The position numbers and the translations under genes are program-made. A DNA stretch of 63,765 nt, filler included, from Rhabdomonas costata (taxonomy: Eukaryota), in assembly GCA_019059605.1 (NCBI GenBank). It is 53 parts of 53 records of this genome, joined end to end, with 100 filler letters (N's around TTAATTAATTAA, not from the genome) between each part and the next. Parts side by side here need not be neighbours in the genome. Positions count along the whole stretch, not along the records: positions 39,772 to 40,876 come from JAHMHO010028356.1; positions 40,977 to 42,081 come from JAHMHO010028357.1; 51 more parts are not named here. The stretch is one strand, 5' to 3'. Shown in pieces: positions 15,478 to 58,587 of this stretch. The notes under the pieces are model-generated. The model made no database searches and was not told the origin of the DNA. It was given only the letters and a program-made list of their open reading frames with translations. Position 1 is the first letter of the stretch. Each line of letters opens with the position of its first letter.

Positions 15478-15676
15478 TGTGCTGTGAAGGGCACTGGATG
15501 AGGGCGGGGCTTCTTCTTTGGAAGCGCATCAACTTCTGGGCTTGCGGGGATAGACAAAAANNNNNNNNNNNNNNNNNNNNNNNNNNNNNNNNNNNNNNNN
15601 NNNNTTAATTAATTAANNNNNNNNNNNNNNNNNNNNNNNNNNNNNNNNNNNNNNNNNNNNGGTGTTGGGGCCAAAC

Positions 15677-15901
15677 TTTCCCGTTTAGTTTGCCGCAGTA
15701 CGGGAGGTCCGCTCCCCCAGGGAACACCAAGAGCTTCGTTGTACCCTCCCACTCCCCGCTCGGTCCCAGCAGCTGTGCCGCCGTGATGGGTTGCACAGCG
15801 CCGTGTGCCACGGGGTCTACCAGCCCGCCCAGGCAGGTCAGTGCCTGCCCCAGCGACACCGGTCCTGCCCCAGAGTCCGCATACACCCGCACCGCCGCCA
15901 T
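15677..15901 (-). CDS. Biotin-protein ligase N-terminal (BPL_N, glutamine-amidotransferase-like) domain, first coding exon
   Basis: MAAVRVYADSGAGPVS...WEGTTKLLVFPGGADLPYCGKLNG; V.VY...G and LLVFPGGADLPYC..LNG are diagnostic of BPL_N. Confidence 0.88.
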
Positions 15902-17044
15902 ACGTGCCACGCACACAAAACAGCAGCCCAATGTCCGATACAACCGCAAAACTGGATGACAGAAAAAACACAGTGGGTGCAAGCCACGAGAAAGGGGTTG
16001 CAGCCCAACGGACTCCGCAGCTCTTTCGCCAAGGAGCCAAGAGCTCCAAGAACGAACGAGCTATCAGCGAACGCGCTAAAAACATTGCGGCCTCCAACCT
16101 GGTTGACTAGCCTTGCAACTCTCTTTTCTCGGTCACATGATCGATGACATGGTTGAAGGGAGGAAACCAAAAGCTACCGCAGGTTGGCTCTGAAGCACAA
16201 CTCCTTTTTCGATGCCCATGCAAAACCTTCCCCACAGGCAGGAAAGGTGAATGGGGTGACGAGGCGCGTCTTTTCCAGAATATACCGCTTATTTGAGTAG
16301 AGAAGTGATGGGCATGGGGCACAGGGGGCGTGAGTGACGGAATTTTCGAACCGCTAAGCAAGAAAACAGCGCACGATGTAAACTGCAAATTGGAGGTACA
16401 GTCTTGTACAACTGCCACCTCAAAGGCCAAGTTGCTGCACGGCCAAAAGACAAAGCAGAAAGAAGAGCGGAGGGGGAGGCAGCGAGGAAGTCCCAAACTT
16501 CGGTCCGCGGCGTGCCAGTGTGGCAGTAAGTTAATTGCTCCGTGCTCCAAGTGTCAGGAGGTGAAGGTCAAAATAATGCAAAGGAAGAAAAAACACGGTT
16601 ACAGGTATCTAGCTAAAGGATGAATGGCAGAGGGCGGGAAAAGCAGCCACTAGAGACTATGCCAGTGGTGGGAACCGCGGTTGAAAACGAGCAAATGGAG
16701 AAAACCAGCACCAGCGACTTTTCCTCTCTGGCCCAACAAAAGCCACGCCGAGGGGCACCCAAAAAANNNNNNNNNNNNNNNNNNNNNNNNNNNNNNNNNN
16801 NNNNNNNNNNTTAATTAATTAANNNNNNNNNNNNNNNNNNNNNNNNNNNNNNNNNNNNNNNNNNNNGTGGGCGGGGCAGAAAGCGCCACAATGTCGTACA
16901 TACTACACTTGAACCAGAGCGAACAATGCGGCACTGTGGTATGACACACCCTAAACTGCAGAACTGCAGAACTGGAATCCAGGCAGGGGTCATATCAACC
17001 GTGCAATTGGGGAAGGACGGCAAAAAAAAACAGGGCAACAAAGC

Positions 17045-24266: not shown

Positions 24267-25613
24267 GGGGAGCAGGGAACGCGCGGACCAGACCAATAAA
24301 CCTTGATGCGACCTCTGAGCACTACACAAGCACAGAGGGCAGGGCGTGGGTGTGGGTGCAAGTGCAAGTGCTCGTTTGGCCGATCTCAGCTGTGCACGGA
24401 TCCATCTCCCCCACATGGAGAGAATCTCTCCGTCAGAATGTACGCCCTCCTCTCTTGGCAGTGCGTTGAGGTAACCATAAGGCTGATAAGCGTGCACGCT
24501 TTGAATTCAGCTCCCAAGAATTTTACGGTGAGATGAGAAACTGTCGTCTAGAAATAGGGGGTTTTCCGCCCAACCTCTCGCCCAGGGTTCTGCCTTCCCG
24601 TCTATATAAAGAGCAAGTATGAATCTAGAACCACCCACAGCCATTTAAACCACACCCAACTGATCGGCCTCGCCTTATAATAAAACTCGAAAAGAGTAAT
24701 GCAAAACGCCCATAACGCCAAAACGACTGCAGTAAGGGCCAAAACCATTGCAAAACCGACGATATAGCCGCAAACCCAATGGAAACCAGCGCAAAAACCT
24801 GGGGAAAAATACTAAAACTAATGAACCTGCCAAAAATCAGACTCATCAAACCCATCGCAAGCTGGTCAAAAATGCTGCAAAAGCACCGCCATCAGGGAGT
24901 ATTTTTTACAATATATTTTACAATCTTTCCTGGTGTCTAAAAGAAAAAACACGCAAAATCAGGTCGAAAAGCTCATGATAGTCGTTTAAAAGTGTTTTTC
25001 CACCATCCTCTTTCAGCCTCTGAGTGTGTCCCGGCGTACCCCCAGGTGGCTCATGTACCGCAGCCCCACGGGGAGCAGGGCAAGCCCCCAGCACAGCATC
25101 ACCATGCCCGCCACCCGCCCGGAGACCGCACCCGTGAAACTGGTGGCGGGCGGCGCGCCCTGCTCCATAGCCGCCACCGCGGCTGCCCCAAACCCCCNNN
25201 NNNNNNNNNNNNNNNNNNNNNNNNNNNNNNNNNNNNNNNNNTTAATTAATTAANNNNNNNNNNNNNNNNNNNNNNNNNNNNNNNNNNNNNNNNNNNNATT
25301 TTGTTATCTTCTCTCCGATGAATGGCAAACGCATTGTGTCGATGATGCCACACAAAATGCAACGAATCCACACGTACTCACATATTCCGTCCTCTGGTTG
25401 GCATCTTCATACTATTTCGACCTCAGTCTTTTAAAACAGACGTTCGAGAACAGTTTCAAGCAGACATGGGGAAACATGGCTTTGCCATAACTTTTGAGCG
25501 TGTCAACTTCAGCTTTTTCAAAGCCCCTTGCAACTGACTCCGATCTTCAGCCGGCGATCGAATACAACGGCATATGGGGGATGTCGGACAATTGCTGGTG
25601 GCAAATGAAGGTT

Positions 25614-25615
<2 letters not shown>

Positions 25616-25656
<41 letters not shown>
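25616..25656 (+). repeat. (TG)n microsatellite inside an intron
   Basis: Read directly from the sequence. Confidence 0.95.
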
Positions 25657-25657
<1 letters not shown>

Positions 25658-25700
25658 GTGAATGACCGTGTTTGGATATGCGAATCCGAGGAAGGGTTAC

Positions 25701-25944
25701 CTGCAGGGTCTGCAAACTCCACGAACCCAAACCGCTGTGGCTGTGAGTCATCCCCGGCGAGCTTGGCGTAGGTCACGGGACCGCAAGCCCGGAACAGCTC
25801 CACCAGCTGCTCCGTGGTCACCATTGAGACGATGTTGGCGACATGCACGGTACGCGCCACGTCGAACAAGTTCACCGGAGGTGCCGCCCCTGTTGCTGTT
25901 GGAGGGGTGGTCTCATCTTTGTTTGGGAACCCCGGAGGGACCTC
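25701..25944 (-). CDS. RRM-domain RNA-binding protein exon (SREK1/SRSF11- or CID8-like RRM)
   Basis: RTVHVANI...TTEQLVELFRACGPVTYAKLAGDDSQPQRFGFVEFAD contains RNP2 and RNP1; donor CAG|GTAAC. Confidence 0.88.
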
Positions 25945-26554
25945 CTGAAGCGCAAGCCCAAACACAGGCCAATGGTGCGGGTCTCCCGGTCGCGCTCGTC
26001 ACTTAGCAGCAAGGACAAAACAAATAAAGCACACGCACCCACACGCACATGCACGCATTTGGCGATGGCCAACTTTTTTCTGGGGAAGGCTTGCGATTCT
26101 CCCCCCTCCCTCTCTCCGCATTCACCCCACTCTCGAAGGGCATGGGCATATCAGGCCTCACTGTCCCCTCTGCGCCTCTCTGCCTAATACTATTAGGGCG
26201 TCCTTCTCGGGACCTACTGCCGATGGCGCGTTTTGAGTACTCTTCACAACATACACACATACACAAACACAAGCAAAAACACACAACTACATCCAGACAG
26301 CGAGACGCCGCAATGATTAAGGCTCACGAAACAAACTATTGTAAGCTATAGCTATTGTATCTTTTGGCATCTCATTGGAATGAGGTGAAAACCCAACCCC
26401 NNNNNNNNNNNNNNNNNNNNNNNNNNNNNNNNNNNNNNNNNNNNTTAATTAATTAANNNNNNNNNNNNNNNNNNNNNNNNNNNNNNNNNNNNNNNNNNNN
26501 GGGTGGTTCGTTGTCAAGTACGTTGTGGGTGCTGTCGTAAACCCTCCGCTGCGT

Positions 26555-26716
26555 GGGGCAAGAAGCGGCGCAAAAGGGTTACGAAAGAGCCGCCAAGGGG
26601 CACCGTCACCGGCCGAGGGTGAAAGGTCGGGAATCTCCTGACCCCAAGGACCACGCAGCGTTTCGGGAGGCCTGCTGTATATACAAAGACCTCAGGCCTG
26701 CTTCGGCTTAGCCTCT
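26555..26716. repeat. Dispersed ~160-bp repeat, copy 1 (copy 2 at 58422-58587)
   Basis: Long shared blocks GAGCCGCCAAGGGGCACC, CACCGGCCGAGGGTGAAAGG and CCACGCAGCGTTTCGGGAGGCCTGCTGT occur in two unlinked contigs. Confidence 0.92.
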
Positions 26717-31318: not shown

Positions 31319-31362
<44 letters not shown>

Positions 31363-31468
31363 TTTTTTTTTTTTTTTTTTTTTTTGTTTGTGTTTGTGTT
31401 TGTGTTTGTGTTTGTGTTTGTGTTTGTGTTTGTGTTTGTGTTTGTGTTTGTGTTTGTGTTTGTGTTTG
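31319..31468 (+). repeat. Poly(T) tract (~65 nt) fused to (TTTGTG)n
   Basis: Read directly from the sequence. Confidence 0.9.
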
Positions 31469-31816
31469 TTTGTGTGTGTGTTGAATTCGAAGGAGGCGAA
31501 GGGTCTTGAGGACATAATTGGGAAACTGTGTGTGCGTGTTTGTGTGTGTGTGTGCTGCTGTTGCTGCTTCTCAAACCCCCACCCGTGCTTCTAGCTTCTC
31601 TTTGGTTTCCGGCAGCTCTGCTGTGACTCTGTCTGTTTTCATTTTTACCGGAGGGAGAGTGGGACTTCATCTTGTGCATGTGATTGTCGTTGGTCCGCGA
31701 GTCAGGTTACCGTCCTTTACTGTGCTGGTGTTCACGGGTTCGCGCGTCGATCCTACTGTGCAACTTCATTGACGGAGAGACAGAAGGAGCTCAGCAGCCT
31801 CCAGAATGGGCTTGCA

Positions 31817-37022: not shown

Positions 37023-37670
37023 GTGCTTTTTCATCCTCCACCCCCACCTCCATCCCGTGTGCAGGCCCTGCATGTTGCTCCTGTGGTATGTGGGGTGCAG
37101 CTAATAGCGCATGCCGCAGCGACAGCCGCCATGCCCGCGAGCAGTAGGGTTAGGGGATCCGAAGTTTTAATTCTCTCGAAGTCCCTTGCTGCGTGTATGT
37201 ATGCCCAGGGTCTGCCGGCTGGTGTGTTGTATGTACATATTGTCAGGGTGCCCGCCCCACCNNNNNNNNNNNNNNNNNNNNNNNNNNNNNNNNNNNNNNN
37301 NNNNNTTAATTAATTAANNNNNNNNNNNNNNNNNNNNNNNNNNNNNNNNNNNNNNNNNNNNGTTGTTTTTTGTATTAGAGGTATTTTTTGTCGGCCGGTC
37401 TTCGCGTCGCAGCAGGATAAAGAGTGCCTGTGTTACTTCGATGCGCTAAATGTGCTTTCCGCTCAGGACGGCACTCTTTTTGAAGCGCCGAACAACACTT
37501 GAGGATACCTCAGCCTTCATCCCGTTGGTGTGATGATATCTGTTCCCGAGGCTGTCTCTCGCGCGAATGGGAATGGGGGCTGACTTCACACTGATTCGTC
37601 CAAGCCCCCCCACCTGATGTGATCCGACCGACATGCACTTGACCTCACGAGTTTTCATGCCCTTCTTCAG

Positions 37671-37887
37671 GCCTCCCTCGGGGAACCTTGTGCTTCGGCT
37701 GTTGCGTGCGCTGCGGGACTTTGTGCTGAGCTTCACGGAGTGGCTGTGCTACAGCGCCTTCCTGGCCAACCTACTGGGACGGCCCTCTGGGCTAGCCATG
37801 GTGCTGCCCGCCTCTGCGCTGGCCTACGCCCTGCTCACCACCCCGCGCAGGATGTACTGGGAGCTCGTGCTGGGCTTCACAGAGGCG
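37671..37887 (+). CDS. PIEZO: Piezo-type mechanosensitive channel exon
   Basis: LRLLRALRDFVLSFTEWLCYSAFLANLLGRPSGLAMVLPASALAYALLTTPRRMYWELVLGFTE parallels PIEZO1 LRLLRA...SELLCY...LN......SLVLP......ML..PRP...FW......FTE; CAG| and G|GT boundaries. Confidence 0.82.
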
Positions 37888-40518: not shown

Positions 40519-41004
40519 GTGTGTGGAGTCATGTGCTGTGCATTGTTATTTTCGTGGCCTCAGCCTGTAGGAAGGTTTTCTTTTGCTGAAACAGACGAGA
40601 GATGGTCTCGGCGTCGTCACAGCCATAGCCCCTGGACCCTGGACCCAGCTGGTAGATGCCCTGGCTGAAGTCTGCTGTTGGCGGCCTGCCTTCATCCGGG
40701 CTGCGCCACAACGTAAACCCCGAAAATGTTTGGAGCTTCTTCAAAAATACCTCTTTAAAAGGCTTTTTCTTCTTCTTTTTTTTTTAAAAAAAAATAAATA
40801 TATAGCAGGCTACACCGTAAATGGAGAGTTTACACAAGCCCAAGCCTACTCGGCATAAAAACATGCCAAAAACCCCNNNNNNNNNNNNNNNNNNNNNNNN
40901 NNNNNNNNNNNNNNNNNNNNTTAATTAATTAANNNNNNNNNNNNNNNNNNNNNNNNNNNNNNNNNNNNNNNNNNNNTTTTGGTGTTATAATTATATATAA
41001 TAAT

Positions 41005-41310
41005 AATAGCAAAAATTGAAAAGATAAAGATACGCACGATGATAAATATGTTCATTGTTCAAAAGATCAAACACAATATGGCAATTTTTATTTTCATAAA
41101 CATAACAATGGTTCATACAAAAATGGAACTTTCAAAGGTGTTGATATCGTTTTAGGAAATTAAAATTTATATTGTGGTGTACTTATGCGTTCAATATCTA
41201 CATATACATATACAGATATATATATGCAGGACATATATATACAGGACCCCGTATTGGTTTATCGCACAAGTACATATTGTACAATGATAAACAATATAAA
41301 CATTCACCTC
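41005..41310 (+). pseudogene. Broken 3-methyladenine (methylpurine) DNA glycosylase-like gene of the type seen in giant viruses, inside an AT-rich island
   Basis: From 41023: DKDTHDDKYVHCSKDQTQYGNFYFHKHNNGSYKNGTFKGVDIVLGN*NLYCGVLMRSI (TAA at 41161), then in another frame IYTGPRIGLSHKY. This fits H.D.Y.H....Q...G.FYFH....SYK.GTFKG.DI..G....G.L.RS and PRIGL. Confidence 0.7.
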
Positions 41311-41725
41311 ATGCTGGAACATTGGAAATTTTATTTGATTTTATAAATCTTGGTGGTATCATTTTTATTTAATTTATTTGAATTTATTTTTAATGAAAAT
41401 ATATATGAATATGAATGAATTCGTGAATACAATTTAATGCATTGTGAACATGTGTATCTGCAAATGAATATAAATTATTTGTTAGTTTGTTCGATTTTTT
41501 AATATTATTATGTCTCAAAAAATAAATTTATATTGTCCACCATTTCTTCATATGCATTAGGATTAAAAAATATGAAGATGAATATGAATATGAATTGTTT
41601 ATTTTATTTTAAGATAAATGTATATGTTCATTACATTACATTCATATTTTTTTGGATTATGGAATTAATGCTTCTTTACTTAAATATTTTAAAGCAAAGA
41701 ACACAAATATATATAAGTAAGAAAG

Positions 41726-41783
41726 CAATGCCCGCACATTCAATGCCCGCACATTCAGCGCCCACGCATTCAGCGCCCGCACA
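41726..41783 (+). repeat. 15-bp minisatellite x4 at the AT-rich/host-like junction
   Basis: CA(AT/GC)GCCC(G/A)C(A/G)CATT units start at 41726, 41741, 41756 and 41771. Confidence 0.9.
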
Positions 41784-42334
41784 GCGGCAAAAGTCTAGCA
41801 CCGTCTTTTTTGGGGCTGTTCCTCGCCGTCATCACTTCGGGGCCTTGGTCCCATCTCTCTTTCGATTTCGTATTTGGTGGTGGGAACGTAACCGGTTTTT
41901 TGAGTCGCGCCCAATCCAAATTTTGGTATGGCTCGTAACCGTATGATAACAACCACGGTATGTTCTCCGCATTCATGCTTGAAAGAGGAGGCAGAGGGTT
42001 GGTTGTACTTGGGACTGCATCCAAACTTGAGACTTGAGACCAACATGGGCCATCAGAGGAAGACGAACCGTCAGTGTCCATNNNNNNNNNNNNNNNNNNN
42101 NNNNNNNNNNNNNNNNNNNNNNNNNTTAATTAATTAANNNNNNNNNNNNNNNNNNNNNNNNNNNNNNNNNNNNNNNNNNNNCAAAGAAAAAGCAAAGAAA
42201 AAGCAAAATGTGTGTGTGCAAGAGAACTGAAGCAAAAATCTCCAACAATTCAATTTTCCGATCAATTGTTGTCTGAAAAAGAAAAACGAAAAATTTCGGG
42301 TGCGAATTTTTGGAGATCCCTGGTCAAAGGCAAC

Positions 42335-50912: not shown

Positions 50913-51556
50913 CTATTTCTCGAAGTGGGCCTTGACTCCGTCGCGGAGCTGCTCGCAGACCTTCTTGGCATCCCCGAAGAGCATGTAGTTGTTGTCCTTG
51001 AAGAACAGTGGGTTCTGCACTCCGGCGTACCCTGTGGCCATCGAGCGCTTCATCACGACGCATGTCTTGGCCTTCCACACGTGCAGCACGGGCATCCCCG
51101 CCAGAGCGCTGTTGGGGTCCTCCAGGGCCGCGGGGTTGACGACATCGTTGGCGCCAATCACCAGGCTGAGGTCGGTGTTGGGGAAGTCCTCGTTCAGCTC
51201 GTCCATCTCAAACACCACGTCGTACGGCACTCCGGCCTCGGCCAGAAGCACGTTCAGCTGCCCAGGCATACGCCCTGCACGCCACGGCAGACGTTGGATA
51301 CAGAAGGAGAGAGAAATTCCAGGAAGGATGGCGTATCTGTTCCTGGTGGAGGTGAGGAGATCGAAGGTTGGGGCACGTACAGCACACCGGCGACGGGGTG
51401 GATGCCAAAGCGCAGACGGACTCCATTCTTGTTGAGGATCTTGGAGATCTCCGCGGTGGCGTACTGGGCCTGGCCCTGGCACAGCCCAAAGCCGGGCACG
51501 ATGATGACCTCCTTGGCCTCGCACATCCAGCCCACAACCTCAGCAACCGAGGCTTC
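50913..51556 (-). CDS. NNT: NAD(P) transhydrogenase, C-terminal NADP-binding domain III; last two exons (51556-51388, 51274-50913)
   Basis: [14 protein letters not shown]...[27 protein letters not shown]...[18 protein letters not shown]...GMPVL.VW...[16 protein letters not shown]...MLFGDAK; 113-nt GT-AG intron. Confidence 0.97.
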
Positions 51557-52927: not shown

Positions 52928-53499
52928 ANNNNNNNNNNNNNNNNNNNNNNNNNNNNNNNNNNNNNNNNNNNNTTAATTAATTAANNNNNNNNNNNNNNNN
53001 NNNNNNNNNNNNNNNNNNNNNNNNNNNNGGTGGTGAAAACGACAACGGTAAGGGTGGCTACGGTTACAGACATCCTGCAAGTAGTTTTGAAAAGACGGGA
53101 AAAGGGTTTCCTTTGAAAAGAAAAGTTGTCTGAAAAGAAGCGGCTGACTGAACGAAGGCAGAAAAGAGAGATATTGACAGTCGCTTTTGTAGTAAATTTG
53201 CATTGCATGCAACTCAATCATTTCAGCATGCCTCCCTCATTCCATTCAACGTACTGAATCTTAATCAAACAACTCTCCGTGCCACACTGCTGCAAGATTC
53301 CACATTTTGTAAGTGTCAAAGAGACGTTTGAAGTTAAAAATTCAAAAAAGGACACAATTCAGGGACTTTTTCAAAATCATACCCTCAGTTGAGACCTTCT
53401 CTGGGGAAATCCTGCTTCCCAAATGGCCCCGTTTTTTCTCCCAAACGATGGCAAATATGCCTGAGAATCAATGTGCAATGCAAAAAGGTTTAAAAATAT

Positions 53500-53748
53500 G
53501 TTTTGAAAAATAAAACACGTTTGAAAAAGGACAATGCAAAATTAAAGGACAAAATACAAAAAAGGACAAAAATCAAAAACGGAAAATTAAAAGGAACCAA
53601 ATGTAAAGGACAAAATTCAAAATCCAGGGTCGAAAAATGCATAAATTTCGAAAACATGCGAGAAATTAGGATAAATAACCAAAATAAACGCAAAATTCGA
53701 AAAAGTACATAATTCGAAAAAGGACAAAATTCAAAAAAGGACAAAGGT
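53500..53748 (+). repeat. A-rich degenerate minisatellite with an AAAGGACAAAA motif
   Basis: About 7 AAAGGAC(A) motifs among A-tracts, plus another copy near 53345. Confidence 0.75.
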
Positions 53749-53959
53749 TGAGAGGGAGGGGGGAGGGAGGAAAAGAGGGAACTCGATTTTGAACTATCCA
53801 CACGTGCCTGCCGGTGGCTGACCTCACAAAGCATCTGTGCCGCGTCGGCAGTATCATGAACCCTTCTGGGGACAGGTCCTAAGTCTGTTCCAGTTGCCCG
53901 TCGCAGGGCGGCGCAGGGCAGCAGCGAGTGGAGGTTGAAAGAGGGGGGATGGCAAGCAC

Positions 53960-58421: not shown

Positions 58422-58587
58422 GGGGCAAGACGAGGAGCAAAAGGTTACGAAAAGAGCCGCCAAGGGGCACCACCACCGGCCGAGGGTGAAAGGCCAGGAT
58501 CTTTGACCCCAAGGACCAGCCACGCAGCGTTTCGGGAGGCCTGCTGTTCATACAAAAGACCGCAGGCCTGCTTCGACTTAGCCCTCT
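58422..58587. repeat. Dispersed ~160-bp repeat, copy 2 (copy 1 at 26555-26716)
   Basis: Aligns by eye with copy 1 over its whole length, with scattered substitutions and small indels. Confidence 0.92.

Follow-up and report, generated by a model that had tools for sequence, protein, structure and literature searches.

A decayed Mimiviridae-type AAG-like DNA glycosylase gene fragment in an AT-rich island of a Rhabdomonas costata contig, a candidate giant-virus-derived insertion

Introduction

Eroded giant-virus DNA in eukaryotic genomes is already widely documented. The available portions of the relevant reports describe it in Euglena gracilis (PMC12455990), in Rhizophagus (PMC10640383) and in protists at large (PMC10120064), and a survey for giant-virus elements has covered 7,103 assemblies (bioRxiv 10.1101/2025.04.19.649669). 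A marked difference in base composition between virus and host is described for Bodo saltans virus, with 25.3% GC in the virus and about 50% in its host according to the available text of the virus paper. The same text lists uracil-DNA and formamidopyrimidine-DNA glycosylases but not the AAG-like family that is the subject of the present work.

Here, we analyse a broken gene of this AAG-like family, which lies in AT-rich DNA beside host-like DNA in a contig of the Rhabdomonas costata assembly. The window, meaning the whole stretch of DNA that was analysed, is 63,765 bases long and consists of 53 unplaced contigs of 1097–1122 nt strung together via 100-nt artificial linkers, each made up of 44 N, TTAATTAATTAA and a further 44 N.

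Results

Composition and boundaries of the AT-rich island

The remnant-bearing contig occupies positions 40977–42081 (1105 nt) and is set between an artificial linker that joins two unplaced contigs (40877–40976) and another that leads into the next unplaced contig (42082–42181). GC computation delimits an AT-rich island of 749 nt at 40977–41725 (plus strand), with 22.7% GC compared with 52.2% for the remainder of the contig (41726–42081). The island is real and unique within the window: across 415 windows of 749 nt sampled from the other 52 contigs, GC averages 52.5% (sd 4.5) and never falls below 37.2%, which speaks for an insertion. Only two other patches in the whole window drop below 32% GC per 150 nt, and each consists of simple sequence, one a poly-T/TGTTTG run and the other an A-rich 17-nt repeat. 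At the right-hand edge, the GC content of 100-nt windows rises from 0.21 (41627–41726) to 0.59 (41727–41826) in one step. An earlier sequence-only reading, made by eye, had estimated an AT-rich stretch of about 750 bp with an abrupt switch to host-like composition, and both statements agree with the computed values (22.7% GC, with 52% for the remainder of the window).

The setting of the island differs from that reading, which overlooked the concatenation. Rather than lying within 64 kb of host sequence, the island comprises the first two thirds (749 of 1105 bases) of one unplaced contig, and its left edge at 40977 is the contig end. As this base directly follows the 44 N/TTAATTAATTAA/44 N linker, which thus forms the apparent left border, there is no host junction on that side; only the right side is host-like. 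The single composition junction, 41725/41726, lies inside the 1105-nt contig, and a 15-nt tandem repeat of about 3.9 copies (41726–41783) begins exactly at the switch.

These features count against an insertion and bring in a competing explanation that we regard as a substantial possibility, namely that AT-rich DNA from another entity in the sample, either a giant virus or an organism carrying one, became fused to a host read, whether in a chimeric clone or read or through a false overlap. Such an assembly or cloning artefact would have passed the contamination filters because the contig is partly host-like. Chimeras and contaminants accumulate in bins of tiny unplaced contigs, and the contig is one among 53 equally small pieces; its sole junction coincides with a tandem repeat, it has no second flank, and the composition of the island is entirely unameliorated. 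Set against this, the other 52 contigs include none that is AT-rich overall (the lowest whole-contig GC content is 41.5%), and the window shows no contaminant pool from which the island could have been drawn.

Beyond the glycosylase remnant described below, the island continues as an AT-rich tail (41304–41725, 20.4% GC) in which ORF comparison and simulation revealed no recognisable gene remnant. The longest stop-free stretch, of 74 codons, spans the junction, has no match in Pfam, and is equalled in 115 of 2000 simulated sequences. When compared with 1823 open frames drawn from 31 giant-virus loci, the tail showed chance-level matches only, and the same set of viral frames identified no further viral or NCLDV hallmark gene anywhere in the contig outside the glycosylase blocks. 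The lack of a second viral gene is a further point for an artefact and against an insertion, whereas some 420 nt without an open frame beyond chance would be unusual for the densely coding virus that an artefact calls for. A blastn search against a phage collection returned no match, nor did an Rfam search of the whole window, and no repeats common to the two parts of the contig and the other 52 contigs were found.

The host-like flank and the other contigs

The oligonucleotide usage of the right-hand side of the junction (41726–42081), at 52.2% GC, fits that of the other contigs, although with weak discrimination. Under a fourth-order Markov model, for which the other contigs served as training data, the flank scored 0.018 bits/nt, compared with 0.001 ± 0.036 bits/nt for host pieces and −0.032 ± 0.028 bits/nt for 46 non-host pieces of similar GC content, and none of 200 shuffles exceeded 0.009 bits/nt, which speaks against simple contamination. 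The score nonetheless corresponds to about the 93rd percentile of the non-host controls, so that it overlaps their upper tail and is not decisive. Translation of the minus strand gives an open frame of 103 codons (41770–42081) that enters from the contig end and terminates at a stop codon at 41770–41772; two protein search modes and Pfam yielded neither a homologue nor a family for it, a point against an insertion.

The character of the other contigs was assessed from 143 open frames of the window, of which five matched Pfam (PNTB, Piezo-like, RRM, BPL_N and, at a looser threshold, FbpC_C). The transhydrogenase exon is closest to mitochondrial NNT; in a protein atlas the transhydrogenase piece retrieved bacterial clusters only. 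The Piezo-like exon has AG/GT borders. Telomere-type repeats were not found in the window. Judged from their sequences, the contigs that could be assessed are eukaryotic, with no visible pool of contaminants, and the host has spliceosomal introns, so it is not a kinetoplastid.

A glycosylase gene fragment with several lesions

The frame from 41020 reads KDKDTHDDKYVHCSKDQTQYGNFYFHKHNNGSYKNGTFKGVDIVLGN, followed by a TAA codon (41161–41163, plus strand) and then by NLYCGVLMRSI; a second frame, at 41235–41303, reads IYTGPRIGLSHKYILYNDKQYKH. A phmmer search with the first of these segments (block 1) against 1.84 billion representative proteins produced 635 matches at E ≤ 1e-3, including 76 at E ≤ 1e-10. 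The best match, a 255-aa protein referred to here as P0001, has an E value of 9e-21 and 73% identity over 56 residues. Exhaustive searching was needed for this result, as a word-indexed protein search with the fragment found nothing, and the peptides of the window matched no Pfam family at E ≤ 1.

A family profile of 216 positions, built from 35 of the matched proteins (alignment A1), matches the contig in two places only, both on the plus strand. Block 1 (41029–41196) corresponds to profile positions 48–108 with 104.6 bits (E = 1.7e-33), and block 2 (41235–41303, 'IYTGPRIGLSHKY...', at profile positions of about 162–186) lies in another frame, where the profile matches over positions 153–186 with 19.7 bits (E = 1.6e-7). 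Profile positions 1–47 and 109–152 were not recovered in any of the six frames of the contig, and a search for the missing central part elsewhere in the contig and on the other strand gave only chance-level, mutually inconsistent matches. As block 1 runs almost directly into block 2, without positions 109–152 between them, about 130 nt of conserved core, with a nearly invariant Gly-Pro, have been lost, and the internal deletion is genuine. Both the change of frame and the 44 missing profile positions coincide with a microsatellite-like 15-nt repeat in three copies (41204–41247). Translation and alignment place the TAA inside block 1 at a position that is variable in the family.

The N-terminal part of the gene is also missing, and with it the E-x-E-x-Y motif, in which the family alignment shows no variation at E40, E42 and Y44. 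We take the catalytic Glu and Tyr to lie in this E-x-E-x-Y or 'ETEAY' motif, with roles as in human AAG. The N-terminal third was either cut off by the contig end or has decayed. A peptide in the third frame, 'IAKIE' (41006–41020, plus strand), could be a last trace of the motif, although it is a weak candidate beyond the reach of any profile match and carries no statistical support. The peptides quoted in the sequence-only reading are therefore present in the DNA, and their homology is far beyond chance (E = 9e-21), with the exception of 'IAKIE', which is at most a weak possible remnant. The stop codon, frame break and internal deletion noted there were recovered in the profile alignment, as the TAA at 41161–41163, the two frames and the missing positions 109–152.

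With about 60% of the profile lost, in addition to the stop and the frame change, and only positions 48–108 and about 153–186 of 216 kept, the copy is unable to work and has no function now. The surviving blocks are, by comparison, well preserved. Block 1 retains the invariant D52, Q61, Y68, F69, H70, G80, D86, L99 and R101, and R183, which is Lys here, is the only invariant or nearly invariant position in either block to have changed. Because conserved positions have been retained within the surviving blocks, we take the gene to have been inactivated by deletions that are probably not very old. The same retention, in all but one residue, also counts towards an artefact, against which the several independent lesions in the gene weigh.

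The lesions were also considered as the possible product of misreading a working host gene, through introns or an unusual genetic code. This explanation is refuted so far as can be read from the DNA, and we leave it hardly any chance. It has in its favour that the in-frame TAA falls at a variable family position. However, positions 1–47 and 109–152, with the E-x-E-x-Y motif and the Gly-Pro, occur in none of the six frames; as sequence is missing rather than inserted, introns cannot rescue the gene, and its composition is 30 percentage points away from that of host exons. Reading the DNA with the ciliate code (TAA = Gln) removes the stop and leaves both the frame change and the missing core in place. 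The ciliate code, which had been named beforehand as a way in which the viral interpretation might fail, thus does not apply, as the Gln reading does not bring back positions 109–152.

The family has a distant AAG fold

Profile searches with intact members of the family gave weak results. Eight of 12 full-length relatives match Pfam PF02245 (methylpurine-DNA glycosylase) over the whole length at 16.8–23.7 bits, below the 27-bit gathering cut-off, and 18 of 35 relatives match NCBIfam NF002003 (DNA-3-methyladenine glycosylase) at E ≤ 0.01, well short of the 182-bit cut-off of that model. A search of PDB sequences with the family profile found nothing at E ≤ 1. The fold was judged from the full-length relative P0001 rather than from the fragment. 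AlphaFold gave a confident model of this protein, with a mean pLDDT of 87.6, and the top nine PDB matches in Foldseek are all human AAG (E = 1.3e-6 to 3e-4), with a probability of 1.0, TM scores of 0.44–0.55 and 12–15% identity; apart from human AAG, nothing was found below E = 0.1. From the sub-threshold PF02245 scores and these structural matches, the family is predicted to be a distant AAG-fold group, outside PF02245 by the curated threshold. The sequence-only reading, which had proposed a methylpurine-glycosylase-like family, was right in substance, in view of the eight of 12 sub-threshold Pfam matches and the nine top-ranking human AAG structures. The intact relatives (190–290 aa) would presumably flip out and excise damaged purines.

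Distribution of the family and affinity of the fragment

Members of the family occur in viruses and bacteria. Searching the viral structures of BFVD with the P0001 model identified Catovirus CTV1 (A0A1V0SB56, E = 9.5e-27, 44% identity), Hyperionvirus sp. (A0A3G5A9Y1, 36% identity) and a 131-aa protein of Acanthamoeba polyphaga mimivirus (APMV) Kroon (31% identity). A taxonomy look-up assigns all three viruses to the Mimiviridae, and the first two to the Klosneuvirinae. In IMG/VR, 31 loci with a relative were found when the alignment was used as the query (P0001 alone gave nothing); many are on giant-virus bin contigs or on contigs of more than 1 Mb, and the one relative-bearing record that was examined carries an NCLDV capsid gene (117.5 bits). 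GTDB genomes contributed 48 loci, mostly from Myxococcota, with others from Planctomycetota and Cyanobacteriota, and JGI metagenomes contained 191 relatives, of which the best 80 were used. Two statements of the sequence-only reading, that the family is present in Mimiviridae including Klosneuvirinae and that it has bacterial homologues, are thus borne out, the former by Catovirus CTV1, Hyperionvirus, APMV Kroon and the 31 IMG/VR contigs and the latter by the 48 GTDB loci.

The short mimivirus protein also bears on the meaning of the lesions. It had been argued that the decay of the gene speaks against a live contaminant, and this argument is weaker than claimed: since a 131-aa member occurs in a live mimivirus, a broken copy need not mean endogenisation, and a damaged copy could reside within a free virus genome. 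The existence of short family members in live viruses accordingly counts towards an artefact. Cross-project contamination from a sequenced organism is disfavoured, as no near-identical sequence was found in IMG/VR, GTDB, the best 80 of the 191 JGI metagenome relatives or the 1.84-billion-protein library, where the best match is the 73% identity to P0001.

A third explanation is that the donor was not a virus but an AT-rich protist or bacterium owning a member of the family, with the DNA arriving by horizontal transfer or as a contaminant. We consider this improbable. The family is indeed also bacterial, with its 48 loci in Myxococcota, Planctomycetota and Cyanobacteriota, and the closest relative, P0001, is known from one 9.2-kb Logan contig of unlabelled origin; nine of the 10 best phmmer matches likewise have no informative name or origin. 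That P0001 and most of the near relatives are unlabelled metagenomic proteins, possibly cellular, also stands against the insertion of viral DNA. The sequence comparisons point in the other direction. In tblastn against 79 loci (31 from IMG/VR and 48 from GTDB), the top 18 are all IMG/VR giant-virus contigs, with 44–64% identity in block 1 versus 31–50% for the bacterial copies. When the best 80 of the 191 JGI relatives are included (159 loci), the best match is a 1.7-kb metagenome contig with 69% identity in block 1. The contigs of the nearest relatives have 23–33% GC, whereas the bacterial family genes have 37–76%, except for one at 31%. A ciliate donor, for which the TAA would encode Gln, again leaves the frame change and the missing core in place.

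The phylogeny, which rests on 78 informative columns, was examined at two levels of sampling. A quick tree of 121 rows (30 viral, 44 bacterial and 46 unlabelled, plus the fragment; a duplicate locus and four frames longer than 420 aa were excluded) joins the fragment to P0001 (SH-aLRT 87) in a poorly resolved mixture of viral and unlabelled rows, outside which lie 42 of the 44 bacterial rows. An AU test on this set, with the fragment held with the bacteria, returned p = 0.60, an uninformative result, as the constrained search had arrived at a better tree than the short, free one; the test was therefore repeated with 39 chosen rows and a careful search. In the resulting tree, which contains 16 of the 31 viral loci, 14 of the 48 bacterial loci, eight unlabelled rows and the fragment, the 14 bacterial rows split off with support of 100/98, the fragment falls in a 95/94 group with 14 viral and eight unlabelled rows, and it pairs with P0001 (84/92). 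In both trees the unlabelled relatives are interleaved with giant-virus contigs. Holding the fragment together with the bacteria costs 14.8 log-likelihood units and is not rejected (p = 0.164), which leaves a non-viral donor some room. The tree thus matches the viral expectation of the sequence-only reading in that the fragment sits on the virus/unlabelled side of the 100/98 split, while the AU test still admits a bacterial placement. Taken as a whole, the phylogeny favours a placement on the viral side, without proof.

Discussion

We favour, at slightly below even chances, the explanation that the island is a genuine decayed insertion derived from a giant virus. It would consist of foreign AT-rich DNA with the dead remains of an AAG-like DNA glycosylase gene of the Mimiviridae type. 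A segment from a giant-virus genome would have been inserted into the nuclear genome of an intron-bearing eukaryote of about 52% GC and would then have decayed through deletions at AT-rich simple repeats, and the insert would be young enough for its base composition and the conserved residues of its surviving blocks still to be viral-like. That the DNA was physically integrated, and in the direction from virus to host, we infer, whereas the composition of the island, the homology and lesions of the gene and the viral affinity of its family are direct observations.

A more specific version of this explanation is rather unlikely as a whole, namely that the junction is real, that the island is the relic of a Klosneuvirinae/Mimiviridae-like virus, and that its glycosylase belongs to a branch otherwise represented by one metagenomic protein, P0001. 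If true, the island would give the first sign of giant-virus infection in this lineage and would hint at a group of viruses not yet sampled, and more relics would be expected in other AT-rich contigs that the assembly leaves unplaced. A real junction would make the contig a record of a past encounter of this eukaryote with a mimivirus-like giant virus, would justify screening the remaining assembly for larger viral relics, and would add a small further example of a phenomenon documented across protists, algae and fungi. If the contig is instead a chimera or a contaminant, it amounts only to a quality flag for the unplaced-contig bin of the assembly.

The AAG-like family itself is perhaps the more useful by-product of the analysis. 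It has at least 635 representatives and a confident AAG fold, with no curated model reaching threshold, and it spans giant viruses, myxobacteria, planctomycetes and cyanobacteria; our literature searches found no experimental study of it, no activity assay of any member and no paper on its occurrence in giant viruses.

Among known systems, the AAG-like proteins of Mimiviridae are the closest in sequence. They share both blocks with the copy in the window, in the form of the patterns YFHK..NG.YK.GTFKG.DI.LGN...G.L.RSI and GPRIGLS.KY, and their genes share an AT-rich coding context (23–33% GC), with identity in block 1 reaching 64%. They differ in that the viral genes are intact, at 190–290 aa, whereas the copy in the window is broken, and in that its nearest relative overall is the unlabelled P0001 (73%) and not a named virus. 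Human AAG/MPG (PF02245; PDB 1EWN, 1BNK and 3UBY) has the same fold as the full-length relative P0001, and the relatives give weak whole-length matches to the corresponding Pfam and NCBIfam models, but the identity is 12–15% and all of the scores are under the curated cut-offs. Bodo saltans virus, so far as the available text of its description goes, displays a GC contrast between virus and host of the kind seen in the window contig. Endogenous giant-virus elements (EVEs/GEVEs), as described in the available portions of the literature, are many kb to Mb in length, contain several viral genes including hallmarks, and are placed in scaffolds, whereas the present locus comprises 280 nt of one gene and 420 nt of unrecognisable AT-rich DNA, with one candidate junction; what it has in common with them is foreign, viral-type DNA, with an eroding viral-type gene beside host-like DNA.

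Relatives and upstream sequence of the glycosylase remnant

The AAG-like family, the distant relatives of the AAG/MPG alkylpurine DNA glycosylases to which the broken gene in the AT-rich island (40977-41725) belongs, comprises at least 635 representative clusters, sampled here as proteins P0001-P0150 from the phmmer search and loci L001-L159 from IMG/VR, GTDB and JGI, and is held by giant viruses as well as by Myxococcota, Planctomycetota and Cyanobacteriota. Structural modeling confidently predicts the AAG fold for the family. None of the curated models checked reaches its threshold for the family, and our literature search yielded no study of it.

Directly upstream of block 1, the first surviving part of the gene (41029-41196, + strand), lies the octamer AAAATTGA (41012-41019), whose sequence is that of the mimivirus early-promoter motif. 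As about 0.2 chance occurrences are expected per 750 nt at the composition of the island (a hand estimate from base frequencies), the octamer carries no evidential weight.

Exons and introns in other contigs

The window (1-63765) consists of 53 separate contigs of 1097-1122 nt each, joined by 100-nt spacers (44 N, TTAATTAATTAA and 44 N). Both features that seem to span a spacer and "neighborhood" arguments within the window are meaningless. By protein match, 50916-51539 (− strand) contains an exon for nicotinamide nucleotide transhydrogenase, specifically for its NADP(H)-binding C-terminal domain. Here, residues 88-208 score 180 bits against the bovine and human mitochondrial enzyme, reaching its last residue, and 170 bits, slightly lower, against bacterial PntB. 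The match has an abrupt start inside the open frame, resembling an intron border. A Piezo-like transmembrane unit (about 37670-37886, + strand; PF23188, E = 1.1e-7) is bordered by ...ttcttcag/G on one side and G/gtacat on the other; both borders are canonical splice sites, thus spliceosomal introns are present in the organism. Additional eukaryotic exon fragments are a partial RRM domain, truncated at position 49 of the 70-position model (25459-25998; PF00076, E = 2e-8), and a biotin-protein ligase N-terminal domain (15662-16060; PF09825, E = 4e-12), both on the − strand.

Repeats and simple sequence

Two separate contigs have in common a 78-nt stretch (26555-26632 and 58422-58499, 85% identity) that may be a dispersed host repeat. 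A 44-nt unit is tandemly duplicated in exact copies at 1352-1439, and imperfect 21-30-nt repeats at 2018-2306 would encode a low-complexity protein segment rich in Gly/Met/Ser/Pro. At 31319-31482, a contig starts with a 67-T run that has two G in it and is followed by about 17 × TGTTTG. The A-rich patch at 53426-53750, where GC content falls to 25%, is a degenerate 17-nt repeat, CAAAATTCGAAAAAGGA, and the host therefore possesses AT-rich sequence of its own; however, this patch is simple sequence, whereas the island is complex sequence.
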